A DNA stretch of 64,000 bases from an uncultured Muribaculaceae bacterium (GCA_947629175.1 CANRCT010000003.1:16271-80270), one strand, 5' to 3'; positions 49,938 through 64,000 are shown, counted from the first letter of the stretch. Translations and numbers: made by a program. The notes: generated by a model from the sequence alone, not told the origin.

Positions 49938-50687
49938 ATGGACAATAAAAAGGCATATTTCATTTCCGATATCCATCTTGGGGCAGGATGGATCGCTGAC
50001 CCGCGTGCCCATGAGCTTGCCATATCACGATGGATAAGCTCTCTTGCCGGCAAAGCGTCGGCTCTCTACATATTAGGCGATGCGATCGACTACTGGTATG
50101 AATACCGCACGGTGGTACCACGTGGTTTCGTGCGTTTTTTTGCCGCCATTGCATCGCTGACCGACGCTGGAATACCTGTCTATTGGCTCAAAGGAAATCA
50201 CGACATCTGGATATTCGACTATCTTCCCTCTGAAATAGGAGTAAAAGTGATTGACGGAGCATTGGATACTGAAATTCTCGGCCACCGGTTCTATCTCGAA
50301 CACGGGGATCTGAGCGGCGAACCGCGTCGGTCATATCGGCGGATGCAACGGATTTTCCGCAACCGGACGGCTCAACGGCTTTTCTCAGCCATTCATCCGC
50401 GGTGGACAGTTGGATTCGCCCACCGATGGTCATCGCATTCACGGCTCAACGGTAAGGAAGCCTCCGAAATGCTTCAGGCTGACGACCCGCTGATGCGCTT
50501 TGCTGAGCAATACAGAAAGGAGCATCCTGACACGGAATATTTCATATTCGGCCACAGACACATTCTTGTCGAAAAAACGTTGGCTCCCGACTGCCATCTG
50601 GTAATACTCGGTGAGGGATTCAGGCTCATGACTTATGGAGTATTTGACGGCGAATCTTTCAATATTCATAAAATTAAGCAATATTAA
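49938..50687 (+). CDS. lpxH: UDP-2,3-diacylglucosamine diphosphatase
   Basis: FISDIHLG, LGDAIDYW, GNHDIW, HGD and FGHRH metallophosphoesterase motifs; ATG 49938. Confidence 0.88.
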   Translation: MDNKKAYFISDIHLGAGWIADPRAHELAISRWISSLAGKASALYILGDAIDYWYEYRTVVPRGFVRFFAAIASLTDAGIPVYWLKGNHDIWIFDYLPSEIGVKVIDGALDTEILGHRFYLEHGDLSGEPRRSYRRMQRIFRNRTAQRLFSAIHPRWTVGFAHRWSSHSRLNGKEASEMLQADDPLMRFAEQYRKEHPDTEYFIFGHRHILVEKTLAPDCHLVILGEGFRLMTYGVFDGESFNIHKIKQY

Positions 50688-50802
50688 CAAACGGCCGTCG
50701 TTTTACCATCAAGCACTTGTCGACTGTATATCAACAGATTGAGTCCAAAGCTCGCTCAATTGTGCGTAATAATGATGTTTCACAACATATTTATTTATTA
50801 GA

Positions 50803-50837
50803 TGGTGACAGAATTAAGGCATACCTTTGTGTCACCA
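50803..50837 (+). promoter_or_regulatory. Promoter TACCTTTG (50822-50829) bracketed by an 8-bp inverted repeat
   Basis: TGGTGACA 50803-50810 and TGTCACCA 50830-50837. Confidence 0.6.
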
Positions 50838-50921
50838 AACTAAAACAATCTTTTTTACCTTAGAAATTCTACCTTATTGAAAATCATGAAAGAGGATTCC
50901 GACGTTTCGGAATCCTCTTTT
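50836..50921 (+). ncRNA. Candidate ~85-nt trans-acting sRNA
   Basis: Consensus -7 element upstream, perfect 14-bp terminator as 3' end, no ORF contained between them. Confidence 0.6.
50889..50921. terminator. Perfect 14-bp intrinsic terminator
   Basis: AAAGAGGATTCCGA-cgtt-TCGGAATCCTCTTT followed by T. Confidence 0.9.
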
Positions 50922-51049
50922 ATATTTCCACATGACCTGCATAAGTCCCCGACGATAGAAGCTATCGTATCTTTCCATCAAAAAATATAGCACCGCCCTC
51001 CGAAGCAGGCTTACTTTGCAGCCTGAAAAGACTAAACGAATACGACACT

Positions 51050-51241
51050 ATGTACAGACCATTACTCACCTGGGCCATTATGGCAGCAATATTTATACTG
51101 CTGTTTATCCTGAAAGGCACAGGCTTGTTCCGACGGCATCACAAGAAGAGCCTCATCGAGATATCAACCGAACGTGAAGAATTTTTCGTACCGGGCGATC
51201 TTACGAGCCATGACAGAAGCAGAGACTATGAAGACTTCTGA
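51050..51241 (+). CDS. 63-aa single-pass membrane protein upstream of the ThrE pair
   Basis: A-rich leader, TM LLTWAIMAAIFILLFIL, basic RRHHKK; overlaps the next gene start. Confidence 0.5.
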   Translation: MYRPLLTWAIMAAIFILLFILKGTGLFRRHHKKSLIEISTEREEFFVPGDLTSHDRSRDYEDF

Positions 51242-52004
51242 GCATGATACGGATAAGGTGAGAGAGCTTCTGACCGACTATGCCGGCTGGCTGCTCGGAT
51301 GCGGAGCCACATGCATAAGACTTGAAAAGAATCTCCGGCGGATCGCCGATGCCTATGGCCAGAACCTGGAACTCACCATCACCCCGCACCACGTGCACAT
51401 CGCCATTGCAGACCGCCGCGACAGAGTGGTGTTCACCTCTATAGCTGCTGCCCGCGGAGGCGTCACAAGTTTTGACACCATAACCCGCCTGAGCGCTTTC
51501 AGCTGGAGAATTGCCGACACTGATATGAATATCGACGAGGCCCGACGCCATTTTGACAGCATAGTCAGCGAAAAACCTCGCCATCAGTGGGCCGTGGCTC
51601 CGCTGGTCGCCTTGGCCAACGCATCGTTCTGCCGCCTGTTTGGAGGCGATGCCGCAGCCATGGCGGTGGTATTTGTAGCCACTCTTGCCGGCTATTGTCT
51701 GAAACTATGGCTGTGCGGACTTCACACTGATATCAGACTCGTTTTTCTCTCATGCTCATTCGTGTCGTCAGTGATCGGGGCTTCCGGATATTTTTTCGGA
51801 CTCGGATCCACTCCTCAGCTTGCTGTCGGTACGAGCATACTGTATCTCATACCGGGAGTGCCGTTTCTCAATTCGTTCAGCGACATGCTCCATAGATTCT
51901 ATCTGTGTTCGCTCGGACGGCTCATGGATGCATTGGTGCTGACGGCTTGTCTGTCGATCGGATTATGTGCCGGAATGATGGCTACGGGGACAGGCATGTT
52001 CTGA
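51228..52004 (+). CDS. ThrE-family exporter, large subunit
   Basis: LLGCGATCIRLEKN, NASFCRLFGGD and LYLIPGVP motifs; start at 51228 or 51210. Confidence 0.88.
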   Translation: MKTSEHDTDKVRELLTDYAGWLLGCGATCIRLEKNLRRIADAYGQNLELTITPHHVHIAIADRRDRVVFTSIAAARGGVTSFDTITRLSAFSWRIADTDMNIDEARRHFDSIVSEKPRHQWAVAPLVALANASFCRLFGGDAAAMAVVFVATLAGYCLKLWLCGLHTDIRLVFLSCSFVSSVIGASGYFFGLGSTPQLAVGTSILYLIPGVPFLNSFSDMLHRFYLCSLGRLMDALVLTACLSIGLCAGMMATGTGMF

Positions 52005-52037
52005 ACAAAATCTGTTATTGCATATTATCAATATATC

Positions 52038-52520
52038 ATGGATCTGAATATTCTCTCCGACGCACTGTTTGCCGCTCTGGCGGCTGTAGGGTTCTCTTCG
52101 ATCAGCCGTCTGCCGTTGAGAGCTTATCCGTATTGTGCCGCGATAGCGGCGATCGGTCATTCATTGCGCTATTTACTGATGCTGAGCCCGGAACCTGCTT
52201 TGCATATTTTCTGGGCAAGCCTCATCGCATCGTTTGTGATCGGCGCGCTTGCCGTACTGTTGTCGCCGAAAGCACACACTCCTGCCGAAGCATGCTTTTT
52301 CCCTTCTCTGTTGCCCATGATTCCGGGCATGTATGCCTACAAAGCTTTCGGTGGACTGGCTGCCTGCGTGCTAAACGATGATCCTGATAAGTTCGGCTAT
52401 TATTTCTACCAGTTTGCAAGCAACGGGTTCGTGTGCCTCGCCGTTTTGGCCGCTATGGTTGTCGGAGCTACGCTACCATTGTTCATGTTCAAAAAAATCG
52501 CATATCAGGCCACCCGTTAA
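52038..52520 (+). CDS. ThrE-family exporter, small subunit (ThrE_2)
   Basis: FAALAAVGF, AAIGHSLRY and LPMIPGMYAY motifs. Confidence 0.88.
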   Translation: MDLNILSDALFAALAAVGFSSISRLPLRAYPYCAAIAAIGHSLRYLLMLSPEPALHIFWASLIASFVIGALAVLLSPKAHTPAEACFFPSLLPMIPGMYAYKAFGGLAACVLNDDPDKFGYYFYQFASNGFVCLAVLAAMVVGATLPLFMFKKIAYQATR

Positions 52521-52573
52521 CACGGATTATTTGCTACTTTTGTTTTTAACCGTCCTATACCTCAAAACTAACG

Positions 52574-53473
52574 ATGGAACTTCGTCAGATCAGATATTTC
52601 GTGAAACTCGCCGAATGCCTCAGTTTTTCCGAGGCGTCGCGATCGCTATGCATCACTCAGAGCACACTCTCCCAGCAGATAAAACAGCTTGAGACAGAAT
52701 TCGGCACACAGCTCTTCATACGCACCAGCCACAGCGTAGCCCTGACAGAGGCAGGGCTCGAACTGCTGCCGATGGCACGCCGGGCTATCCGTACGGCCGA
52801 CGACTGCCGCTCGCGCATCGAAGATCTGTCGCAACTCAGATGCGGCACGCTCAATATAGGCGTGACTTACTCTTTCAGCCCGATACTTACCGAAAGTATC
52901 GTTACGTTCATGAAACTGTATCCCGGCATCAAGCTCAATGTCCTCTACAAACCCATGTCGGAACTTATGGAGGCCATGAAGCGGAGGGAAGTGGACTTTG
53001 CGCTCGCGTTCAAGCCTCTCCAGCCTATTGAAGGAGTAGAATCACATATCCTTTTTCAAAGTTTTCTCGCAGCCATAGTGCGGCCTACCCATTCTCTCGC
53101 TTCGCATGAAAGGCTATCGCTTAACGATCTTTCCGCCTACGATCTCGCGCTTCCTGCCAAAGGACTACAGGCACGCAACGCTTTCGACAGCGTCGCCTCA
53201 CACCTGTCAAAGCCAAGGGTCAGAATAGAGCTGAATGAAGTGAACATATTGCTGAAACTCATCGGACAGACTGATCTCGTCACTATTCTGGCAGAAGCTA
53301 CCATTCATAATGTCAGTGGGGTGAAAGCCATCCCCCTCGATATACCCGACAATGTGATGACAGGTTGCGTCCACGTGCTTTCCGATTCTTACCGCAAGCA
53401 GTCAATGCAGGAATTTCTGCGTATTCTGAGCGATTCGATCGCGGTCAAGGAGAGGCAAAATGCATGGCTTTGA
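52574..53473 (+). CDS. LysR-family transcriptional regulator (CynR-like)
   Basis: MELRQIRYF..LAECLSFSEAS...TQSTLSQQIKQLE HTH and substrate-binding domain. Confidence 0.95.
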   Translation: MELRQIRYFVKLAECLSFSEASRSLCITQSTLSQQIKQLETEFGTQLFIRTSHSVALTEAGLELLPMARRAIRTADDCRSRIEDLSQLRCGTLNIGVTYSFSPILTESIVTFMKLYPGIKLNVLYKPMSELMEAMKRREVDFALAFKPLQPIEGVESHILFQSFLAAIVRPTHSLASHERLSLNDLSAYDLALPAKGLQARNAFDSVASHLSKPRVRIELNEVNILLKLIGQTDLVTILAEATIHNVSGVKAIPLDIPDNVMTGCVHVLSDSYRKQSMQEFLRILSDSIAVKERQNAWL

Positions 53474-53475
53474 TA

Positions 53476-53512
53476 GTCATACTCTTAAAATGACTGACTA
53501 TCCGAGTATGAC
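53476..53512. terminator. Inverted repeat between the convergent LysR and LuxR genes
   Basis: GTCATACTC/GAGTATGAC with a 19-nt loop. Confidence 0.45.
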
Positions 53513-53530
53513 AGAAACTTAAAACTTTTT

Positions 53531-54490
53531 TCACACCGGAGTGACTTCATTGACATCCACAAGATGATGTATAATAGCGAAAATGGTCAGTCCGGCAGCC
53601 GTATGAATCTCCAGCTTAGCGCTGATATTGCGGCGGTGGGTGGCGACGGTATGCACCGAAATGCATAATTCGTCGGCTATCTCCTTGTTGACTTTTCCTT
53701 GTGCCACTCCCCTGATGATCTCCTTCTCACGCTCACTGAGCAGAGCGAGCTGTGCCGATGTATCTCCGTCTACATCAGGCTCCAGACCCTCGCTTTCCGA
53801 CATCGAACGCCGCTTCTCCATCTCAAGCCGTTCTACGGCAGGGATGAAAAGCTGACTCTCTACGTCGAAATGGCGCAACATGTCGCGCTCGCACATTATT
53901 ATGTCGAACAGCACTCCGCTCAGTCGGTCGTTCTCCTTCTGCTTATAGTGATATATGAAGATATCCTTCAGCTCCTTGAGTTTCTCGGCCGTATCGACGT
54001 GGCCGGCCGAATAGCGCGCGATATTGAACTCCTCGTCGGCTTCGCCACGGATCAGACGCTCCACATAGCGGAATATGACATCGTTCTCATAATCCATGTG
54101 TTTCTTCACCTCTACCACATAATCGTCGTAAAACTTCATGAGCAGCAGAGCCGCCTCATTCGATGCCGAATAGTTGATGGCGTCGATCAGATAATGGCGT
54201 ATCTTCGGGAACTGCACGTCGAGAAACGACGTGTGGGCCCGTTTGAGATACCCCATCAGCGACTCCAGCGATATTTTCACCACATCATGAGGATAGCCGC
54301 TCAACAGATTGCATACGCACAGAAAAGTATCCGTATCGACTCCGTTTTCCCTGCACACCTGCGCTACCGTGCCGTCACCGAAGCCAAAAGCGATATCGAA
54401 ACGACTGATAGCCGGCAACAGCATGGCATTGTCGCGAATCAGCTCTCTCATTTTATTGGACGAGAGGTATCCTTGTTGCTTATCGATCAT
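53531..54490 (-). CDS. Regulator with RIC/ScdA-like N-terminus, hemerythrin-like domain and LuxR HTH
   Basis: FGFGDGTVAQVC (ScdA_N-like); H and HxxxE motifs (RAH, KKHMDYE, LRHFDVE); LSEREKEII...TVATHRRNI. The -7 element at 54522-54529 sits too close to ATG 54520, so 54490 is preferred. Confidence 0.82.
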   Translation of the reverse strand: MIDKQQGYLSSNKMRELIRDNAMLLPAISRFDIAFGFGDGTVAQVCRENGVDTDTFLCVCNLLSGYPHDVVKISLESLMGYLKRAHTSFLDVQFPKIRHYLIDAINYSASNEAALLLMKFYDDYVVEVKKHMDYENDVIFRYVERLIRGEADEEFNIARYSAGHVDTAEKLKELKDIFIYHYKQKENDRLSGVLFDIIMCERDMLRHFDVESQLFIPAVERLEMEKRRSMSESEGLEPDVDGDTSAQLALLSEREKEIIRGVAQGKVNKEIADELCISVHTVATHRRNISAKLEIHTAAGLTIFAIIHHLVDVNEVTPV

Positions 54491-54643
54491 AAAGGAACCA
54501 TCGGGCTGTGTTTTTCCCATGCAAAATTAATATCTAATATCTTCTCTGCAAATACCCGAAAGCGATGATAATATTCTTCCGACATGCCTCTATCTGTCGC
54601 GGTAGAGATACAAAAAGTCCGAAATTATCATTTCATCACGGTA

Positions 54644-54674
54644 TTGATATGCCTTGATGACAGATATAATTTTG
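54644..54674 (+). promoter_or_regulatory. Promoter of the PepSY/hmu-like operon
   Basis: TTG 54644-54646, 20-nt spacer, TAATTTTG 54667-54674. Confidence 0.65.
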
Positions 54675-54704
54675 CACTTGAAAAAATCAACCATCACAGA
54701 CTGA

Positions 54705-56231
54705 ATGAAATCCAACCGACATATTCTGACATGGAAAAACGTCCACAAATGGATCGGACTCGTGCTGACGGTATTTCTTTTTCTGTTCTGCCTTTCGGGT
54801 CTGGTGCTCAACCACCGGGGACTTTTCACGTCATGCTCGGTCAGCCGGTCGATACTCCCATGGGCATATCATATCAGAAATTTCAACAATGGCATCATAA
54901 AGGGCACAATCCCTTTTTCCGCCGACAAACTGCTTGCCTACGGCAACGCGGGCGTATGGCTTGCCGACCGGGAGCTCGCTTCGATATCAGACTTCAACGA
55001 CGGGCTGCCGGAAGGAGCCGACAACCGTAACATACGCAACATCATCCGTACGTCGGACGGCACGCTGTGGTGCGCCGCCCAGTTCGGCCTTTACCGGCTT
55101 GACGGTGGCAGCTGGACAAAAACGTCCCTGCCCGAAAACGACGAACGCATAGCCGACGTAACCGTCACGCCTGACAGTGCCGCCGTTGTGGTGATGAGCC
55201 GTTCGGCTATCTACCGGATGACCGGCCACGGATTTCAGCGTAAGGAGCTCGCTCCGCTCGAAGGCCACGCTGAAAAGGTGTCGCTCTTCAAGACCATCTG
55301 GCATCTGCACAGTGGGGATCTGTTCGGCATTGCCGGAAAAATAATAGTGGACATCATAGCGATAGTCATCATATTTCTCTGTCTGACCGGCATCGTGCTT
55401 TTCGTACTCCCTTATTCTATAAGAAAGGGAACCAAAGCAAAAGCCGTATCAAAGGCAAGAATGCTCAAATGGAACTTCAGATGGCACAATAAGGCCGGAT
55501 ACTATACAATAGTGCTGACACTGCTGATTGCCGTCACCGGAGCATGTCTGAGGCCTCCGCTGATGATCCCCCTCGTTATGGTCAAGACCGCTCCCCTCCC
55601 AGGCTCCACGCTTGACAGCGACAATGCCTGGCACGACAAGCTGCGCGGCATCCGTTGGGACGCCACAGAGGGCAACTGGCTGATATCCACTTCCGACGGC
55701 TTCATCCGTGCCGACAGGGATTTCACAGGTCAGCCGCAGAGCGTGGACTCCAAAACAACCCCTCCCGTCAGCCCTATGGGCATCAACGTATTCGAGCATG
55801 CCGGCGACGGCAAGTGGCTCATCGGATCTTTCAGCGGTCTGTATTTGTGGGATCCCCGCGAGGGCGCCGTCAATGACTATTTCACCGGCGCGCCATACAT
55901 GACTTCGCGCGGTGGCCGACCGGCTGTGGCGTCGCACCTCGTATCGGGCTACAGCTGCGATCTGACATGCGGCCATGCGGTATTTGACTACGTCAGGGGA
56001 GCCGATCCCCGGCTGAAAATGCCACAAGTGCTGGCCGAACAGCCGATGTCGCTCTGGAACTTCGCACTCGAGCTTCATGTGGGCCGCTGCTACTCCCCTT
56101 TCCTGGGACCGCTGTCGGATCTGTTCGTATTCCTTTCAGGCATGATACTGGCGATCGTGCTGATCTCGGGCCTCATAATCCACAACCGCATCAGCCGGAA
56201 AAACAAAACGCATAACCGAAAAACAATATAA
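54705..56231 (+). CDS. PepSY-associated TM protein (iron-regulated membrane protein family)
   Basis: Four TM helices with conserved His (HKWIG, WHLHSG, WHNKAG, ELHVGR) separated by two large periplasmic domains. Confidence 0.85.
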   Translation: MKSNRHILTWKNVHKWIGLVLTVFLFLFCLSGLVLNHRGLFTSCSVSRSILPWAYHIRNFNNGIIKGTIPFSADKLLAYGNAGVWLADRELASISDFNDGLPEGADNRNIRNIIRTSDGTLWCAAQFGLYRLDGGSWTKTSLPENDERIADVTVTPDSAAVVVMSRSAIYRMTGHGFQRKELAPLEGHAEKVSLFKTIWHLHSGDLFGIAGKIIVDIIAIVIIFLCLTGIVLFVLPYSIRKGTKAKAVSKARMLKWNFRWHNKAGYYTIVLTLLIAVTGACLRPPLMIPLVMVKTAPLPGSTLDSDNAWHDKLRGIRWDATEGNWLISTSDGFIRADRDFTGQPQSVDSKTTPPVSPMGINVFEHAGDGKWLIGSFSGLYLWDPREGAVNDYFTGAPYMTSRGGRPAVASHLVSGYSCDLTCGHAVFDYVRGADPRLKMPQVLAEQPMSLWNFALELHVGRCYSPFLGPLSDLFVFLSGMILAIVLISGLIIHNRISRKNKTHNRKTI

Positions 56232-56250
56232 ACAATAAAACAATAACGTA

Positions 56251-56727
56251 ATGAAAACAATCACTACCCTCTTCGCATCAATGATGCTCTTCGCCGGACT
56301 GACGGCCGCATTCACATCATGCTCCGACGAAAAGTACGAACCCGAAATCCCCGCGGCCAAGAGCGTGGCCGGAACCTATACCGGCGACATGTCATGCACC
56401 GTGATGGGCAGCGAATCGACATTCGAGAACATGACTTTCACGGTGACCGCAACGGACGACGCCACGGTGACCGTGAAGATCCCGACATTCGGCAACCCGC
56501 CGATGCAGGTGCCTGAGATCGACATCCAGGGCGTGAAGGTATCGGGCAGCGAAGGCACATACTCGCTTGCGTCGACCGAGTTCAGAGGCTCTACCGATGC
56601 CGGCCGCGAATATTCCGGCACCGTACAGGGGGCGTTTGCCGACAACACTCTCACCATACGGTTCAGCCTCCAGTACGGAGCCATGCCGATGCCGATGATC
56701 TGCGCATTCTCCGCCCCAAAACAATAA
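56251..56727 (+). CDS. Calycin-like beta-barrel lipoprotein, probably surface-exposed
   Basis: Lipobox FTSC (Cys24), acidic SDEKYEPE after the Cys, VAGTYTG, all-beta pattern and GAMPMP. Confidence 0.78.
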   Translation: MKTITTLFASMMLFAGLTAAFTSCSDEKYEPEIPAAKSVAGTYTGDMSCTVMGSESTFENMTFTVTATDDATVTVKIPTFGNPPMQVPEIDIQGVKVSGSEGTYSLASTEFRGSTDAGREYSGTVQGAFADNTLTIRFSLQYGAMPMPMICAFSAPKQ

Positions 56728-56732
56728 TTGTC

Positions 56733-58877
56733 ATGACTGGAAGTCTGAGGTACATACTGATTTATGCCGTCGGACTTCTGTCTCCGCTCACAGCCCTTGC
56801 CGACGCATTCGCCGGCAAGGTGCTTGATGAGACAGGGAGCCCGCTGCCGGGAGCCATCGTAAGGATCGACGGCTTCAGACAGCCGGCCATAACCGACCCC
56901 GACGGCCGATTCACATTCGAGATACCGCAAAAATCCACCGCCGACATCACGGTCAGCTATGTCGGCTATACCCCCAACTCCACCGTCATACGCGCCGACG
57001 GCAGCGAGAAAGACAATACGGTGCGCATGAATCCTGATCCGACAATGCTCAGCGAGATCGTTGTGACGGCCACGCGTACACCCAAAACCCTCAAGGATGT
57101 GCCGGTGGTGACACGCGTCATATCAGCCGACGACATCGCCAAGACCGACGCCACCGACATTCAGGATCTTCTGACGGAAGAGCTTCCCGGACTGGAGTTC
57201 GGCTACGCCATGAGTCAGGAAACCTCGCTCAACATGAGCGGCTTCGGAGGCAGTTCGGTGCTCTTTCTCGTCGACGGTGAGCGGCTTGCCGGCGAGACGA
57301 TGGACAATGTCGACTACAACCGCCTCAATCTCGAGAACGTGGGCAAGGTAGAGATCGTCAAAGGAGCCTCTTCGGCCCTGTACGGAGCCAATGCCGTGGG
57401 CGGCGTAGTCAACCTGATCACTCAGGAGAACAACGAGCACTGGCATCTCAACGTCAACTCGCGCTATCGCAGCGCAGGCAAGGAGTGGCGCACCGGAGGC
57501 GAACTCAGCTTCAACTCCGGCAAGTGGAACTCCAACACGTCGGTACAGCACTCTACCCGCAATACGATCAGGCTTACGGACGCATTCGACACCAAATCGA
57601 AGATCCACGAGATCTACGGAGGCAACACCCTTAACATCAAGGAGCATCTCACCTACCGTCTGTCGGATCGCCTGCGTCTGATCGCACGCGGAGGCTACTT
57701 CGCGCGTGTCAGCGACCGGGCCAACTACGATGATCATTACCACGACTACAATGGCGGCCTGCGCGGCATCTGGGATATCGACGACAGTCAGAACCTGGAA
57801 CTGTCATACAGCTACGACCAGTATGACAAGACGCGTTTTGTCAACGACATCCGCACACACGACCACGATTACAGCAACCGGCAGCACATAGTGCACGGCC
57901 TCTACAACAAACTCTGGGGCCTGAACGGACTGACCGTGGGTGCGGACTACATGCACGACTATCTGACGACCTATCAGTTTGTCGACAACGAATCGCATTC
58001 GCAGACATCGATCGACGCATTCGTACAGTTTGACTACAACCCGCTGTCGTGGCTCAACATTGTGGCTTCGGTACGCGACGACTATTTCTCGGAATCCGAC
58101 AACAACGCCGTAACATCGCGCATCGCCACGATGTTCAAGCTCAAGCCGCTGTCGGTCCGTGCCTCCTATTCGGGAGGATTCCGGGCTCCGACTCTCAAGG
58201 AGATGTACATGTGCTTCGACATGGCCGGCATACAGATGATCTACGGCAATCCGGATCTGAAACCTGAAAGGAGTCACAACTTCAATCTCGCGCTGGAGCG
58301 TAACGGCCAGGTACGCGGCGGCATACTCGCTGGCTCCTACAGCCTGACCCTCTCGGGATATTACAACTACTACGACAGCCGTATCACCACCACCGACTTC
58401 CCGGCTACGGCCGACATGGAGGAAGGGGCCATCTATACCAACGAGGACGGAGTGAATGTGATGGGCATCGACTTCAATGCCCGTTACCGCACGCTCTTCG
58501 GCATAGGAGCCTCGGCAAGCTACAACTATCTCCATGTCGACGGCAGACGGTACGACTCACAGTTCAACCAGCCGCGCCCCCACTCGGCTACTTGGCGCCT
58601 TGACTATGACCGGCAGATATGCAGCGGCTACAGAATCTACGCGGGTATCTCCGGACGCTATATGTCAAAACCGGTCAGCCGATACGAGACCGACGGCGCC
58701 TACTCGCTGTGGAAATTCACCCTGCAGCAACGGATATGGCGCGGCATCAGCCTGAACTTCGTGATCGACAATCTGCTGAACTACCGACCCAAGATCTACT
58801 ATTGGAATTCGGCGCCGACCGACGGCCGCTCATGGTCTGTCGGACTGTCAATCGACGTCAACGATTTCTTCAAATAA
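56733..58877 (+). CDS. hmuR: TonB-dependent receptor, HmuR-like
   Basis: N-terminal CarbopepD-like domain, plug (IVVTATRT, VEIVKGASSALYG), FRAP and NPDL motifs; directly upstream of hmuS. Confidence 0.78.
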   Translation: MTGSLRYILIYAVGLLSPLTALADAFAGKVLDETGSPLPGAIVRIDGFRQPAITDPDGRFTFEIPQKSTADITVSYVGYTPNSTVIRADGSEKDNTVRMNPDPTMLSEIVVTATRTPKTLKDVPVVTRVISADDIAKTDATDIQDLLTEELPGLEFGYAMSQETSLNMSGFGGSSVLFLVDGERLAGETMDNVDYNRLNLENVGKVEIVKGASSALYGANAVGGVVNLITQENNEHWHLNVNSRYRSAGKEWRTGGELSFNSGKWNSNTSVQHSTRNTIRLTDAFDTKSKIHEIYGGNTLNIKEHLTYRLSDRLRLIARGGYFARVSDRANYDDHYHDYNGGLRGIWDIDDSQNLELSYSYDQYDKTRFVNDIRTHDHDYSNRQHIVHGLYNKLWGLNGLTVGADYMHDYLTTYQFVDNESHSQTSIDAFVQFDYNPLSWLNIVASVRDDYFSESDNNAVTSRIATMFKLKPLSVRASYSGGFRAPTLKEMYMCFDMAGIQMIYGNPDLKPERSHNFNLALERNGQVRGGILAGSYSLTLSGYYNYYDSRITTTDFPATADMEEGAIYTNEDGVNVMGIDFNARYRTLFGIGASASYNYLHVDGRRYDSQFNQPRPHSATWRLDYDRQICSGYRIYAGISGRYMSKPVSRYETDGAYSLWKFTLQQRIWRGISLNFVIDNLLNYRPKIYYWNSAPTDGRSWSVGLSIDVNDFFK

Positions 58878-58883
58878 CAGATA

Positions 58884-61800
58884 ATGAGCAAAAAAAAGAC
58901 AATTCTACTATCTATAGCTTGCGTTGCCGCAGTCGGCGCAGGCTTCTTGCTTTGGAACAGCCTGGCTTCGCGGACACGCATCGCTTTCGTCAATTATCAG
59001 GCGATAACGCTGGGACAGATCTCCAAGGCCAACGACAACTCTTCCGTGACAATCCATGAGCTCGCACCCGACCAGCTCGGCAAAGCGGGCAAGTATGACA
59101 TGGTATTCGTCAACGGGATGGGACTCCGCATCGACGCCGAGCAGCGTCAGCAGCTTATCGACGCCGCCGAGGCGGGGACGCCGGTGCTGACCACAGCGGC
59201 CACCAATCCGCAGAACCAGATAAATTCGGTCGACTCCATCGACAGCGAGTTTCTGCGCCAGTATCTCACCGGGGGCCGCAACAACTACCGCAACATGCTC
59301 TGCTACGTCAGAAAGTTCATCGACGGCAAGAAACTGTTTGTCGATGAGCCCGGCGACCCGGTTGTAGCGGCGGGATCGCTGCTTTATCATCCCTCGGCCG
59401 ACGATGATCTCACATTCGGCTCGGTGGCCGAGTACGAGCAGTGGCTCCGCAGTCAGGGCAAATGGAGCGACACGGCTCCACGCATCATTCTGACCGGGCA
59501 GATGGGAGTGGCCGACAGTCTCGTCAGCCACCTCGAAAGCACAGGCAATATGGTATATCCTGTGAGTGTCATACAGCCCTTCATCGCCGCCGGGCATGCC
59601 GACTCCGTGCAGGCCTCGGCGATGATCAATATGGCTCACGGACGCATGGGCGACGCTGTGGTGCGCTGGCTCGACAGCCATAACATACCGCTTTTCTCGC
59701 CGGTCAACGCCAACCGCGACTATGACGAGTGGATGGCCGACAAAATGGGCATGAGCGGAGGCTTCATGTCGCAGAGCATTGTCACTCCCGAGATCGACGG
59801 AGCCATCCGACCGTTCACGCTCTTCGCGCATTTCACCGGCGACGACGGACTGCCGAGCGTGGAAGCCATTCCCGGACGCCTCGACGATTTCGTGGCCACT
59901 GTCAACAACTATACGGCGCTTGCACGCAAAGCCAACAAGGACAAGAAGATCGCCATATTCTATTTCAAGGGACCTGGCCAGAGCGCGCTGGTGGCTGAAG
60001 GTATGGACGTAGCCCGGTCGCTGTATAATCTGCTCGTAAAGCTCCGCAACGAAGGCTACAAAGTCGACGGCCTGCCGGCCGACGCCGCCGGACTGGAGAA
60101 GCTGATCGCCGCCAACGGCCGTGTATTCAACGAATATGCCGAGGGAGCGCAGACCGATTTCGTCCGCAACAACAATCCGCAGATGATCAGCCGTGAGGAC
60201 TACGACGCCTGGTGCGACAATGCTTTCTCCAAGGAGATGCGCGGAGAGATCGACGCCGTCGACGGCGAGTTTCCGGGCCACGGGCTGAAAGACGACGCGG
60301 GCAATCTGGCACTGGCACGCATCAGTCTCGGCAACGTAGTGCTCATACCGCAGACTGCGACCGGGCTCGGCAGCGATGACTTCAAGAACGTGCACGGCAC
60401 CGACGCCGCGCCGCCCCACAACTACGTGGCCGCCTATCTTTGGGCGCGCTACGGATTCGGCGCCGACGCGCTGATGCATTTCGGAGCCCACGGCTCTCTC
60501 GAGTTCACTCCGCGCAAACAGGCAGCCCTCGGCAGCGCCGACTGGCCCGACCGCCTGGTAGGCACGATGCCCCACGTCTATGTCTACTCAACCTCAAATG
60601 TGGGCGAGGCCATGATAGCCAAGCGGCGCACATATGCCGGGATAGTCAATTATCTCACCCCGCCGTTCATGGAGAGCGAGGTCAGGGGCATCTACAAAAA
60701 TCTGACCGATGCCATCAACGACTATAACCGCGCTCGCACTCCGACCGATTCGCTGAGGGCATCAGGACTGGTGAAGCGCTATACCCTTGATCTGGGCATA
60801 CACCGCGAACTGCGCATCGACAGCACGGCAGCGCTGACTCCCGACGACATCATGCGCATAGAGAACTTCGCGGAGGAGCTCGCCAACGAAAAAATCACCG
60901 GCGCGCTCTACGTGATGGGAGAGCCCTACGCCGACAAGCATATACGGTCGACCGTCGAGGCCATGACGGTGGATCCGCTCGCCTACAGTCTCAAAAAGCT
61001 CCGCGGTGGTGATCTCCGCGACTGGCGCCGCAAAGCAGTGGAGCTCGTCAGATCGGGCGCTCCTGCCGATGACGCGGCGATATGCCGCATGGCCGGAATC
61101 ACCCCGAGCGATCTTGACAGCGCGCGCAACATACTCCAAGCAGTCGAAGGATCGAAGGATATGCTCTCGCGCATGATGGTGATGGGAGCCATGATGCCCT
61201 CGAAGCCTCAGACCGTCGCGAAGATCTCGGAGCGGCCGGCCACAAAGAAACCGCACGGGATGCTCCCGGGCATGTCGGCCGACAAGGCCATAGAGATGGC
61301 CCGCAAGATGGGAGCCGACGATGAGGCTATCGAGAAGATGAAAGCCGCCATGCAGCGCAAGAGCGTCGCTCCGGCTGCCGGGGGCAAAGCCTCTTCGGGG
61401 CATCTGGGCGGACATCCGGGCATGCAGAAGCCGGCGCTGACAGCCGACCAGATCGCATTCGCCACAGCCGTAAGCGAGGTTGAGCGCGCGCTCGGAAACA
61501 TCGGCCGTTACCGCGAGGCGCTCGCCGGCAGTCCGGCCGCCGAGCTCGCCTCGATAGTCAACGCTCTCAACGGCGGCTACGTTGCTCCGACCTCGGGCGG
61601 CGATCCGGTACTAAATCCCGACATACTGCCTACCGGCCGCAATATGTTTGCGGTGAATGCCGAGGAAACGCCGTCGGCCGTGGCATGGGAGAAGGGCAAG
61701 GAGCTTGCCGAGGGGACTATAGCGATGTACCGCAAGGCCCACGGCGACTCAATTCCCCGCAAGGTGAGCTATACGCTATGGAGCAGCGAATTCATCGAGA

Positions 61801-63131
61801 CCGAAGGAGCTACTATAGCCCAGATACTCTATATGCTCGGCGTGGAGCCAGTGCGCGACCCGTTCGGCCGCGTGACCGACCTGAGGCTGATCCCGTCGGA
61901 GGAGCTGGGACGGCCGCGCATCGACGTTGTAGTGCAGACCTCCGGACAGCTCCGCGACCTGGCCGCCTCGCGCCTCTTCCTCATCAGCCGCGCCGTCAGG
62001 ATGGCGGCCGCAGCCGATGACGACAAGTATCCCAACTATGTGGCCGAGGGCGTAGTCGAGTCGGAGCGCCATCTCGTTGACCGCGGCGTCTCGCCCAAGG
62101 AGGCCCGCGAGCTGTCGACCTCGAGAGTGTTCGGCGGAGTGGGCGGCAGCTACGGCACCGGCATACAGTCCATGGTGGAGGCGGGCGACCGCTGGGACGA
62201 CGCTTCAGAAATAGCCGCCACCTACATCAGCAACATGGGAGCCGACTACGGCAGCGAGGAGTCGTGGGAACAGATGCGCGACTATGCCTTTGAGGCGGCG
62301 CTGACACGCACCGACGCCGTAGTGCAGCCGCGCCAGAGCAATACGTGGGGAGCGCTGAGCCTCGACCATGTGTATGAATTCATGGGCGGCATGAACCTCG
62401 CCGTCAGCAACGTGACCGGCAAGGAGCCCGACGCATACCTGAGCGACTACCGCAACCGCAACCACGCGCGCATGCAGGAGGTGAAGGAGGCGATCGGCGT
62501 GGAAAGCCGCACGACCATACTCAACCCGACGTATATCAGGGAGAAGATGAAAGGCGGATCGGGCGACGCGGCCGCGATAGCGCAGGTGGTCACCAACACC
62601 TACGGATGGAACGTCATGAAGCCCGACGCCATCGACGATGAGCTCTGGGACGGCATCTACGACACCTACATGGCCGACAAGAACCACCTCGGGGTGAAGG
62701 ACTTCTTCCGCTCCAAGAGCCCGGCGGCCATCCAGGAGATGACGGCCGTGATGCTCGAGACGGTGCGCAAGGGCATGTGGGACGCCTCGCCCGAGCAGAT
62801 CGCCGACATAGCCCGGCTTCACACGGAGACGGTAGAGGAATTCGGAGCGGCATGCACCGGTTTCGTCTGCGACAACGCCAGGCTGCGCGACTTCATAGCC
62901 TCGAAAGTCTCGCCCGAGTCGGCCAAAGCCTACAACGAGGCCGTGGCCACGGCAAGAGCCGAGAATATCGCGGCCGACGACAACTCTATGGTGATGAAAC
63001 GCGAGGATCTCAACTCCGCGGAGACCACGACCAACCGCATCAACGGACTGATCGTGGCCGCAGTGGTGGCCGTGGCCATCGCCGGACTTGTGCTCCTCAT
63101 CCGCCGTCGCCGCAAAAACATCCGACAGTAA
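58884..63131 (+). CDS. hmuS: CobN/Mg-chelatase-family membrane protein, HmuS-like
   Basis: MHFGAHGSLEF, LPTGRN, RPRIDVVVQTSG and LSLDHVYEFMGG motifs; N- and C-terminal TM anchors; hmu gene order. Confidence 0.88.
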   Translation: MSKKKTILLSIACVAAVGAGFLLWNSLASRTRIAFVNYQAITLGQISKANDNSSVTIHELAPDQLGKAGKYDMVFVNGMGLRIDAEQRQQLIDAAEAGTPVLTTAATNPQNQINSVDSIDSEFLRQYLTGGRNNYRNMLCYVRKFIDGKKLFVDEPGDPVVAAGSLLYHPSADDDLTFGSVAEYEQWLRSQGKWSDTAPRIILTGQMGVADSLVSHLESTGNMVYPVSVIQPFIAAGHADSVQASAMINMAHGRMGDAVVRWLDSHNIPLFSPVNANRDYDEWMADKMGMSGGFMSQSIVTPEIDGAIRPFTLFAHFTGDDGLPSVEAIPGRLDDFVATVNNYTALARKANKDKKIAIFYFKGPGQSALVAEGMDVARSLYNLLVKLRNEGYKVDGLPADAAGLEKLIAANGRVFNEYAEGAQTDFVRNNNPQMISREDYDAWCDNAFSKEMRGEIDAVDGEFPGHGLKDDAGNLALARISLGNVVLIPQTATGLGSDDFKNVHGTDAAPPHNYVAAYLWARYGFGADALMHFGAHGSLEFTPRKQAALGSADWPDRLVGTMPHVYVYSTSNVGEAMIAKRRTYAGIVNYLTPPFMESEVRGIYKNLTDAINDYNRARTPTDSLRASGLVKRYTLDLGIHRELRIDSTAALTPDDIMRIENFAEELANEKITGALYVMGEPYADKHIRSTVEAMTVDPLAYSLKKLRGGDLRDWRRKAVELVRSGAPADDAAICRMAGITPSDLDSARNILQAVEGSKDMLSRMMVMGAMMPSKPQTVAKISERPATKKPHGMLPGMSADKAIEMARKMGADDEAIEKMKAAMQRKSVAPAAGGKASSGHLGGHPGMQKPALTADQIAFATAVSEVERALGNIGRYREALAGSPAAELASIVNALNGGYVAPTSGGDPVLNPDILPTGRNMFAVNAEETPSAVAWEKGKELAEGTIAMYRKAHGDSIPRKVSYTLWSSEFIETEGATIAQILYMLGVEPVRDPFGRVTDLRLIPSEELGRPRIDVVVQTSGQLRDLAASRLFLISRAVRMAAAADDDKYPNYVAEGVVESERHLVDRGVSPKEARELSTSRVFGGVGGSYGTGIQSMVEAGDRWDDASEIAATYISNMGADYGSEESWEQMRDYAFEAALTRTDAVVQPRQSNTWGALSLDHVYEFMGGMNLAVSNVTGKEPDAYLSDYRNRNHARMQEVKEAIGVESRTTILNPTYIREKMKGGSGDAAAIAQVVTNTYGWNVMKPDAIDDELWDGIYDTYMADKNHLGVKDFFRSKSPAAIQEMTAVMLETVRKGMWDASPEQIADIARLHTETVEEFGAACTGFVCDNARLRDFIASKVSPESAKAYNEAVATARAENIAADDNSMVMKREDLNSAETTTNRINGLIVAAVVAVAIAGLVLLIRRRRKNIRQ

Positions 63132-63826
63132 TGGCTATAGTGGTTATGATCATCATGGCTCTGGTCATCTTCAGCTTCGTGCTGAAGATGACGTGCCATG
63201 GCTGGGCCGGACGCATCGCCACATGCGCCGTGGCCGCCCTCTTCGTCATCGCCACCTACGGCGTGGCCTCCGGACAGTCGAAGACGCAGATAGCCGACTG
63301 GCTCATGCAGCCCGACCTGATGCTCGACCTGTCGGTGTGGCTCACCGTCGACGTAGCGTTTCAGACCGCATTCTGCATTCTCGCCGCCAAACGGCTCTCC
63401 GGACCGCTCGACCGCATGAGGCGGGCGATGCTGGGCGTGTGCCGGTGGGTGCCGGGGCTGCTGATCTTCCCGGTGCTCTTCGCCGTGCTGACCGAGCTGA
63501 TATTCTCCATGCCTGGCGTCGGTTTCGCCACCATAGCCTGGAGCCTGGCCGCAGCCGTGCTCATCGCGGCTCCGCTGCTGGGCGCCGGCCTCCGCTGGCT
63601 CATACCTGAGACCGAGATCAGACTCGAACTGCTCTTCATGGTCAACATGCTCATCGCCGCGCTCGGAGTGGTGGCCACCGTCAACGGCCGCACGGCCGCC
63701 GCCGGCACCAACGAAGCCCACTGGAGTGCGCTCGGCGCCGTAGCTCTCCTGCTCCTCGCCGGCCTCGCCGCAGGCATCGTATGCGACAGATTTCTCACCC
63801 GCAAAAAAATATCCAAAATAAAATGA
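63131..63826 (+). CDS. hmuT: HmuT-like polytopic membrane protein
   Basis: ATG overlaps the hmuS stop (TAATG); about six TM helices; QSKTQIADWL and ELLFMVN segments. Confidence 0.75.
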   Translation: MAIVVMIIMALVIFSFVLKMTCHGWAGRIATCAVAALFVIATYGVASGQSKTQIADWLMQPDLMLDLSVWLTVDVAFQTAFCILAAKRLSGPLDRMRRAMLGVCRWVPGLLIFPVLFAVLTELIFSMPGVGFATIAWSLAAAVLIAAPLLGAGLRWLIPETEIRLELLFMVNMLIAALGVVATVNGRTAAAGTNEAHWSALGAVALLLLAGLAAGIVCDRFLTRKKISKIK

Positions 63827-64000
63827 ACGTAATATCCAACATTCTCTACTGGATCTCCACCGGCCTGCTCGTGCCGGTGATCGTGCTCCTCATCTTCTTT
63901 TTCATCCGTGCGATCATCATGATCGGCGCCTTCTTCGGCCAGTATCTCAACGAAAAGCGCCTCACCGCCCCGCTCTGCCGGCAGCTGCAGCAGCTGACGC
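63823..64000 (+). CDS. hmuU: HmuU-like MotA/TolQ/ExbB protein, 3'-truncated by the window edge
   Basis: MNVISNILYWISTGLLVPVIVLLIFFF; ATGA overlap with hmuT; expected operon position. Confidence 0.7.
   Translation, partial: MNVISNILYWISTGLLVPVIVLLIFFFIRAIIMIGAFFGQYLNEKRLTAPLCRQLQQLT

Follow-up and report, generated by a model that had tools for sequence, protein, structure and literature searches.

We examined a window of 64,000 nucleotides (the whole stretch of DNA analyzed, one strand) from an uncultured Muribaculaceae bacterium (GCA_947629175.1 CANRCT010000003.1:16271-80270), and in particular a tightly packed gene cluster at its right-hand end that is related to the hmu operons of Bacteroidales. 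Judged from its protein sequences, this cluster is an operon of the hmu type for heme uptake and de-chelation. Seven genes encode, in order, a PepSY_TM protein, a calycin-like lipoprotein, HmuR, HmuS, HmuT, HmuU and HmuV, and the gene of a hemerythrin-LuxR regulator runs divergently from them (Table 1). It was shown in 2025 that HmuS is the enzyme with which gut Bacteroidales remove iron from heme without oxygen (PMC12583661); the route by which electrons reach this periplasmic protein, or by which the heme at its site 1 is reduced, was left open by the authors. The locus described here is a variant of the Bacteroidales hmu operon in which the known back end, HmuSTUV, stands behind an alternative intake cassette that lacks HmuY.

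The source genome is 99.9% complete and Paramuribaculum-like. Open reading frames (ORFs) were called mechanically, and positions past 64000 were read from the same contig (C3:78000-92000, our locus L002) and are given as window-equivalent. The ORFs and junctions matched to the base the anatomy proposed in an earlier interpretation of the same DNA (the sequence-only reading), including every gap and overlap that it had listed. One promoter and six genes had been counted there: a single -7 box does precede the operon, and the number of genes rises to seven with hmuV, which had been suggested as something to look for beyond the window and was found there as a DUF2149 gene. Together the regulator and the seven genes make up a self-contained locus of about 11.2 kb, from window position 53531 to about 64757. 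To call the system little-described was fair: 'cal' and 'pepSY' arrows appear in a figure legend of a paper from the Olczak laboratory (PMC12106395), so that the variant has been glimpsed in the literature but was not analyzed there.

Table 1. Features of the hmu locus and its surroundings, in window coordinates; positions past 64000 are window-equivalent.
Feature	Position	Strand	Remarks
Left copy, 77-nt direct repeat	53424-53499	+	flanks regulator and operon
Hemerythrin-LuxR regulator	53531-54520	-	divergent from operon
-7 promoter box TAATTTTG	54667-54674	+	from pattern scan; 31 nt before first ATG
PepSY_TM	54705-56231	+	508 aa; 19-nt gap to lipoprotein gene
Calycin-like lipoprotein	56251-56727	+	158 aa; 5-nt gap to hmuR
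HmuR, TonB-dependent receptor	56733-58877	+	6-nt gap to hmuS
HmuS, CobN-like	58884-63131	+	1415 aa; TAATG overlap with hmuT
HmuT	63131-63826	+	231 aa; ATGA overlap with hmuU
HmuU (MotA_ExbB)	63823-64428	+	window holds 63823-64000 only
HmuV (DUF2149)	64425-64757	+	110 aa; ATGA overlap with hmuU; past window end
Right copy, 77-nt direct repeat	64760-64836 (L002 3031-3107)		past window end
FadL/TodX-type outer-membrane channel gene	64873-66252 (L002 3144-4523)		after hmuV; own promoter

The back end and, very probably, the receptor are those of a heme system

HmuS carried the Pfam CobN-Mg_chel domain (4e-288) and aligned over its full length with HmuS of Bacteroides thetaiotaomicron (PDB 9D26; E=0, residues 1-1412 versus 1-1460). 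The residues reported as functional in that protein are Met79 and His254-Gly-Arg at site 1, His538 in HFG(T/A)HG, and His1209 and Glu1212 in LSLDHxxEFMGG (PMC12583661). All of them were present in the window protein: the site-1 heme ligands as M79/G80 and H252-G-R, the essential His within HFGAHG at 532-537, and the last motif as LSLDHVYEFMGG at 1158-1169. We also found a Met-rich insertion, with 13 Met in residues 741-860, and transmembrane helices at 6-24 and 1388-1406, a predicted anchor at both ends. The protein shared 85% identity with HmuS of Paramuribaculum intestinale DSM 100749 and 96% with its counterpart in a metagenome-assembled genome (MAG) of an uncultured Muribaculaceae bacterium. 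HmuT, a polytopic inner-membrane protein with several hydrophobic segments, gave no Pfam match; in every locus surveyed, however, the gene next to hmuS encoded a protein with 40-72% BLAST identity to it. In Phocaeicola vulgatus, Tannerella forsythia and Bacteroides hominis, hmuS is likewise followed by orthologues of HmuT, HmuU and HmuV. The hmu-type assignment made in the sequence-only reading is thus well supported.

The outer-membrane receptor HmuR matched the Pfam Plug and TonB barrel models, together with an N-terminal CarboxypepD_reg domain (CarbopepD_reg_2). Its best NCBIfam model was that of TonB-hemin receptors (TIGR01785), at 165 bits and below the cut-off of 317, and the B12 receptor model TIGR01779 matched over the full length but below threshold. 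A FRAP-NPDL box was found with FRAP at 483 and NPDL at 506. Because this box is almost letter-identical in receptors with and without a linked HmuY, the ligand class of the HmuY-less receptor is very probably unchanged, that is, heme. An Rfam scan of positions 50000-64000 (E<=1) found no cobalamin riboswitch or other RNA leader near the operon.

The calycin-like lipoprotein is a regular member of hmu operons

Neither the HmuY profile of Pfam (PF14064, whole genome and locus, E<=1) nor a local hidden Markov model (HMM) built from four confirmed HmuY proteins and run on all stop-to-stop ORFs of at least 60 aa genome-wide (E<=0.01) returned a match. The lack of HmuY noticed earlier at the locus is therefore confirmed, and the search for a copy elsewhere in the genome was likewise empty. 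The lipoprotein itself belongs to the Pfam family Calycin_like (PF13944; 77 bits against a cut-off of 30, 2e-21) and was not matched by the HmuY profile. Its lipobox Cys24 was invariant in an alignment of 56 sequences and is followed by acidic residues (S-D-E in the window protein, consensus CSDxDxDEP). From this alignment, AlphaFold2 predicted an eight-stranded up-and-down barrel (predicted local distance difference test score, pLDDT, 86.6). The only strong PDB match found with Foldseek was 3RWX, the BF2706 protein of Bacteroides fragilis (query-normalised template-modelling score, TM-score, 0.69), which also matched by profile at 2e-16. Next came lipocalins, and the weaker matches included nitrobindin and alpha-1-microglobulin, barrels that bind heme; the top 50 matches listed contained no structure of HmuY. 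The model is thus a calycin barrel, not an HmuY fold. C49, M85, M145 and M147 were nearly invariant in the same alignment. The loops that carry them (b1-b2, b3-b4 and b7-b8) share one end of the barrel, where conserved Met, Cys and Pro residues cluster around the mouth. Given this cluster and the operon context, the lipoprotein may bind heme or another porphyrin.

To place the gene in its wider context, we surveyed 80 HmuS loci related to that of the window and 63 related to that of P. vulgatus, using local HMMs with representatives checked against Pfam; about 140 of the roughly 500 HmuS loci in the species collection were read in this way. The order calycin, HmuY, HmuR was the most frequent arrangement listed in the first set (31-32 loci), followed by calycin, HmuR (16 loci) and by PepSY_TM, calycin, HmuR (14 loci and one PepSY_TM-calycin fusion ORF). 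The calycin gene was absent from 2-3 loci, most of which lie on truncated contigs. Of the second set, about 31 loci had calycin, HmuY and HmuR, and about 15 had the classical HmuY and HmuR, T. forsythia, Alloprevotella and Proteiniphilum included. Of about 68 loci in the first set that could be scored, about 63 had a calycin gene ahead of hmuY or hmuR, as did about 33 loci of the second. The layouts are represented in culture by Duncaniella muris DSM 103720 (PepSY_TM-calycin-HmuR), P. intestinale DSM 100749 (calycin-HmuR) and P. vulgatus ATCC 8482 (calycin-HmuY-HmuR).

These counts overturn the earlier idea that the lipoprotein takes the slot of hmuY. Because calycin genes precede hmuY in most hmu operons of Muribaculaceae, Phocaeicola and Bacteroides, the calycin lipoprotein is a regular and unstudied member of the operon, not a substitute inserted at the HmuY position. 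The gene that encodes 3RWX (99% identical in B. hominis) is itself the first gene of a Calycin-HmuY-R-S-T-U-V operon; the crystal structure is unpublished, and we found no paper on BF2706 or 3RWX in the literature. The textbook operon of six genes is therefore incomplete for most gut Muribaculaceae, Phocaeicola and Bacteroides, with calycin as its regular first gene, and where HmuY is absent calycin is the only lipoprotein left.

The lipoproteins nevertheless differ between cassettes. That of the window has a single domain, of the type of the C-terminal domain of the two-domain protein BF2706, with a GAMP motif, whereas most HmuY cassettes of Muribaculaceae encode either the N-terminal-domain type or a protein with both domains. 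Window-type proteins were 31-32% identical to the P. vulgatus protein.

The PepSY_TM gene is recurrently linked to hmu genes

The first gene of the operon encodes the sole PepSY_TM family member that a search of the source genome returned (PF03929, residues 13-492; 82 bits against a cut-off of 28.8, 8.7e-23). Its AlphaFold2 model (pLDDT 90) has four long transmembrane helices (10-36, 205-241, 244-281 and 461-507, here TM1 to TM4). Among 60 homologues, H37, H202, H261, H458 and R461 were invariant and H14 nearly so. On the cytoplasmic side, H14 and H261 lie at the ends of TM1 and TM3; H202 and H458 mark the periplasmic entries of TM2 and TM4, with R461 after H458. Further conserved residues on the periplasmic side are H37, H310, M287, M358 and M448. 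It has been reported that FoxB holds two b hemes through two His ligands per membrane face, with an Arg at the periplasmic heme (bioRxiv 10.1101/2021.01.28.428567). The His and Arg residues described here reproduce this pattern of ligands and propionate contact, also in a motif alignment, and the "His-bearing" protein of the sequence-only reading proves to carry the conserved His set of di-heme reductases. By analogy, drawn from the Pfam model, the His pattern and the topology, the protein may work in the manner of FoxB.

To examine the neighborhood of the gene from its own side, we fetched 80 loci with the PepSY_TM alignment and found hmu genes beside it in 53 of them. The order PepSY_TM, calycin, HmuR, HmuS and onward occurred in 26 loci, and HmuS, HmuT, HmuU, HmuV, PepSY_TM, calycin, HmuR in 17 (B. 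heparinolyticus DSM 23917 and Prevotella spp.). Smaller numbers had PepSY_TM after HmuR-S-T-U-V (3 loci), before HmuS (2 loci) or after HmuY (3 loci, B. hominis). One locus had HmuY and HmuR about 2 kb downstream of PepSY_TM (L219), and in another (L163) the contig was cut after the divergent regulator gene and PepSY_TM. In about 21 loci the gene stood alone. The linkage thus holds in at least five gene orders, and this independence of order argues for a function shared with Hmu. The trio PepSY_TM-calycin-HmuR occurred in 43 of these 80 loci, in 15 of the 80 of the first HmuS set, which overlaps with them, and once in the second (L120); since it recurs in this way across the surveyed loci, the arrangement is not due to chance. 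The trio also moves as a block relative to hmuSTUV.

Some individual loci deserve mention. The order with the trio behind hmuV was common in Prevotella-like MAGs and was also seen in B. heparinolyticus (L182, L194, L192). In one MAG (L005 4631-6670, equal to L164) the PepSY_TM and calycin frames are joined into a 679-aa ORF directly before hmuR, which is either a natural fusion or an artefact of assembly or frameshift. In B. hominis (L231 4251-8485, also L226 and L239), a PepSY_TM homologue with 50% identity directly follows an HmuY paralogue and a TonB-dependent receptor; this context of the B. fragilis group lies far from the main hmu operon and is a second, HmuY-containing setting.

Intake cassettes have been exchanged on a conserved backbone

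In the HmuS tree, HmuY-less and HmuY types were interleaved, with at least 20 changes of architecture. The large trees were made with FastTree and were backed by an IQ-TREE approximately unbiased (AU) test on 25 HmuS sequences and by direct DNA alignments. The AU test rejected the monophyly of the HmuY-less loci (log-likelihood difference 1639, p=2e-5). In the HmuR tree, in contrast, all HmuY-less loci formed one clade (support 100, stem 0.54), and the HmuY-linked receptors formed the other.

DNA alignments showed where the exchange took place. D. muris (L045, PepSY_TM type) and a MAG with HmuY (L047) shared 85% DNA identity across the 5' region of the regulator gene and 85% again over a stretch that opens 19 nt ahead of hmuS and closes with the hmuV stop codon, whereas the front end showed no similarity. 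The breakpoints, at the regulator and at the junction of hmuR with hmuS, are thus clean. Within the HmuY-less form, the sole difference between L045 and L062 is an indel of 1.47 kb that precisely covers PepSY_TM, and in L006 a 78-aa remnant of the PepSY_TM C-terminus, ending in a stop codon, lies directly before the calycin gene. A simple deletion of hmuY in situ from a neighboring Muribaculaceae operon was considered and rejected, as HmuR and calycin of the HmuY-less loci form a separate lineage and the DNA shows replacement of the whole cassette. Taken together, these results indicate that PepSY_TM-calycin-HmuR is a mobile module that recombination exchanges for calycin-HmuY-HmuR where the hmuSTUV backbones are closely related, and that the PepSY_TM gene has repeatedly been lost. 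The real difference between the two forms is the whole front end, in which PepSY_TM and an HmuR from a clade of its own are combined with a calycin protein that resembles the C-terminal domain of BF2706. With intake genes swapped while the processing backbone is kept, the locus clearly illustrates how systems for nutrient acquisition can evolve by modules.

The regulator and the operon form a discrete, transferable unit

The divergent gene encodes a one-component regulator with an N-terminal RIC/hemerythrin-like domain (Pfam Hemerythrin, 28.4 bits against a cut-off of 25.3) and a C-terminal helix-turn-helix (GerE/LuxR, 60 bits). H96, H141/E145, H174 and H217/E221, a set of the form H...HxxxE...H...HxxxE, were conserved in 28 homologues. 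The gene was the divergent neighbor in 27 loci of the first HmuS set. A putative di-iron regulator belonging to the operon, as had been proposed from the sequence, is supported by these retained ligands and by the inheritance of the gene together with the operon. TAnnTTTGCA boxes stand at the position equivalent to the -7 box in related loci, and within the operon of the window the only other TAnnTTTG matches were inside hmuS. We used this box of Bacteroidetes promoters because a scan for sigma-70-type promoters and terminators is uninformative for this phylum.

The regulator and the hmu operon are a discrete, transferable unit. Two copies of the 77-nt direct repeat, 84% identical and the only two in the genome, bracket them, and in a genome of the same genus (L158, 2585-2603) the left and right flanks are joined, which marks an empty site. 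Compared with P. intestinale, DNA similarity ran from the regulator stop codon to shortly past the regulator start and, in a second block, from the calycin gene to the hmuV stop, between unrelated flanks. No integrase or other mobility gene was found inside the unit. HmuS was present in 20 of 121 Muribaculaceae species genomes.

We also considered base composition. The genes hmuS and hmuT (58884-63826) have a guanine-plus-cytosine content of 62-63%, at about the 95th-99th percentile of 5-kb windows in a genome of 53.8%, and the regulator gene has 51%. As evidence for transfer, values near the upper tail of these windows are not decisive.

Comparison with known systems and a proposed mechanism

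The main results of this analysis are three: PepSY_TM is recurrently linked with hmu, the calycin lipoprotein is recognized as a member of hmu operons in general, and the exchange of cassettes is demonstrated. The locus shares with the canonical hmuYRSTUV operons of Porphyromonas gingivalis and B. thetaiotaomicron (PMC12583661) an orthologous HmuR-S-T-U-V series in the same order and an HmuS in which the residues for ligand binding and catalysis, the insertion rich in Met and the membrane anchors at both ends are all kept. It differs from them in that operon and genome lack HmuY, PepSY_TM and calycin genes are added in front, HmuR belongs to a separate clade and the hemerythrin-LuxR regulator gene lies divergently beside it. 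A second comparison is with the calycin-HmuY-HmuR-STUV operons of P. vulgatus, the B. fragilis group and many Muribaculaceae, which belong to the same operon family, begin with a PF13944 gene and, in about half of the Muribaculaceae loci, have the same divergent regulator; in these operons, however, hmuY still separates the calycin gene from hmuR, and none of those surveyed here includes PepSY_TM. A third comparison is with the xenosiderophore system XusABC of B. thetaiotaomicron (PMC13142918) and with FoxA/FoxB of Pseudomonas aeruginosa (7ABW). The three-part logic, in which a TonB-dependent transporter works with a lipoprotein at the surface and a PepSY_TM reductase in the inner membrane, is alike, as is the four-helix core with conserved His ligands for two b hemes. 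In contrast to these systems, the window receptor is of the heme type, not the siderophore type, with heme iron as the presumed substrate; its lipoprotein is a calycin barrel, not a DUF4374 propeller, and the periplasmic part of its PepSY_TM protein is a beta-propeller, not two PepSY domains.

Our best explanation, which we consider rather probable, is that calycin captures heme, HmuR imports it, PepSY_TM reduces it in the periplasm and HmuS de-chelates it, with the front-end cassette swapped by recombination. The lipoprotein, probably placed at the surface to judge from its lipobox and acidic residues, would bind heme at the Met-rich open end of the barrel, where Met, Cys and Pro are conserved, and would pass it to HmuR. 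Import through HmuR would be energised by HmuU and HmuV, which resemble ExbB and ExbD and would act as in the published model. The PepSY_TM protein, as a four-helix di-heme conduit like FoxB and XusC, would move electrons from the cytoplasmic side to the periplasm; the acceptor might be imported ferric heme or the heme at the regulatory site 1 of HmuS, and the propeller could serve as a docking or substrate site. HmuS would then remove Fe(II) and leave protoporphyrin IX, as indicated by the motifs found here and by the activity of the B. thetaiotaomicron orthologue. Lastly, the di-iron regulator may tie expression to the status of iron, O2 or NO. Because a FoxB-like gene lies beside hmu in at least five independent arrangements, PepSY_TM is a concrete candidate for the missing electron step of HmuS. 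A bolder version is possible, and we hold it only tentatively: the propeller-bearing PepSY_TM would be a transmembrane di-heme reductase specific for heme and the missing electron route itself, calycin would be a second, non-HmuY class of heme capture with Met ligands, and with HmuR the two would form a portable Xus-like trio swapped against the HmuY cassette.

Several findings weigh against this proposed mechanism. Mature calycin has no conserved His. In the PepSY_TM model the two periplasmic loops together form a roughly seven-bladed beta-propeller, not PepSY domains, with the Bacteroides hybrid two-component system (HTCS) sensor propellers BT4673 and BT4663 as best PDB matches. As the propeller dominates the comparison, Foldseek did not list FoxB 7ABW, whose sequence matched weakly (E=0.15), and we rejected FoxB as a fold match for the whole model. 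About 21 of the 80 PepSY_TM homologues are stand-alone, as in Segatella copri, where the gene lies beside greA. A homologue was found in none of the 8 HmuY-type genomes tested. Among 8 genomes with the HmuY-less cassette and no PepSY_TM in it, 6 gave no match, one had a full-length copy elsewhere and one the remnant beside the calycin gene. As 8 of 8 HmuY-type genomes and 6 of 8 with the PepSY_TM-less cassette do without a homologue, PepSY_TM is not essential for HmuS. A 16-nt candidate operator, CTATTTTTGGGTATTG, emerged from an expectation-maximisation search and is present on either strand in most of the intergenic regions that separate regulator and operon. It was set aside as evidence after a genome scan gave 131 matches of at least 11 bits, with the weaker local site at 11.3, and it may be a generic -33 promoter sequence. 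Since this shared motif is not genome-specific, it is from co-inheritance, the best evidence, that we infer that the regulator serves the operon. In addition, many of the surveyed loci come from MAGs with unreliable taxon labels.

In a rival account, calycin is a structural accessory of the receptor (a lid or stabiliser, like the small barrel lipoproteins on SusCD-type transporters), HmuR takes up free heme alone and PepSY_TM is a general periplasmic ferric or cupric reductase parked near iron-regulated genes. Weak fold similarity of the lipoprotein to BT2261, a lipoprotein of a SusCD complex (5FQ6_E, 3H3I), would fit a role as accessory, and as most operons encode the hemophore HmuY alongside calycin, heme binding by calycin itself is not required. 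PepSY_TM family members reduce siderophore iron or serve copper handling, and the stand-alone genes and the hmu-bearing genomes without a homologue, most of those tested, agree with a general reductase. Linkage of PepSY_TM with hmu in at least five independent orders (after hmuV, before hmuS and beside an HmuY paralogue among them) is, however, hard to account for without a shared function, and the cluster of Met, Cys and Pro at one barrel mouth is as expected of a ligand site; we regard this account as unlikely. Much less probable in our judgment is that the front end imports another metallo-tetrapyrrole, such as a corrinoid or a non-iron porphyrin, from which HmuS removes the metal. This would revive the old 'BtuS' idea, in which salvage of metalloporphyrins was the role first suggested for the CobN-like BtuS proteins (cited in PMC6460266), and the deep separation of the HmuR clade and the full-length, sub-threshold match to TIGR01779 point the same way. 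It is countered by the lack of a cobalamin riboswitch in the region scanned, the nearly identical FRAP-NPDL box, the unchanged catalytic and site-1 residues of HmuS and the fact that one hmuSTUV backbone, at 85% DNA identity, serves both cassettes. We give almost no credence to the view that the locus is decaying and that the loss of hmuY reflects degeneration. The patchy distribution of hmu and the repeated deletion of PepSY_TM could be read in that sense, but all seven ORFs are intact and tightly coupled, and dozens of species retain the HmuY-less cassette, its proteins 50-80% identical and their functional residues invariant.

Neighboring features

Two features lie around the unit. A weak match to the Bacteroides small RNA family BTnc060 of Rfam was seen on the left (50717-50923, plus strand; 41 bits, E=0.0013, against a gathering score of 229). 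On the right, the repeat copy carries the TAACTTTG promoter box of the FadL-like gene after hmuV. The position of this FadL/TodX-type gene is kept only in the closest MAG (L067), and because the gene adjoins the left flank in the same-genus genome without the hmu unit, we place it outside the operon.

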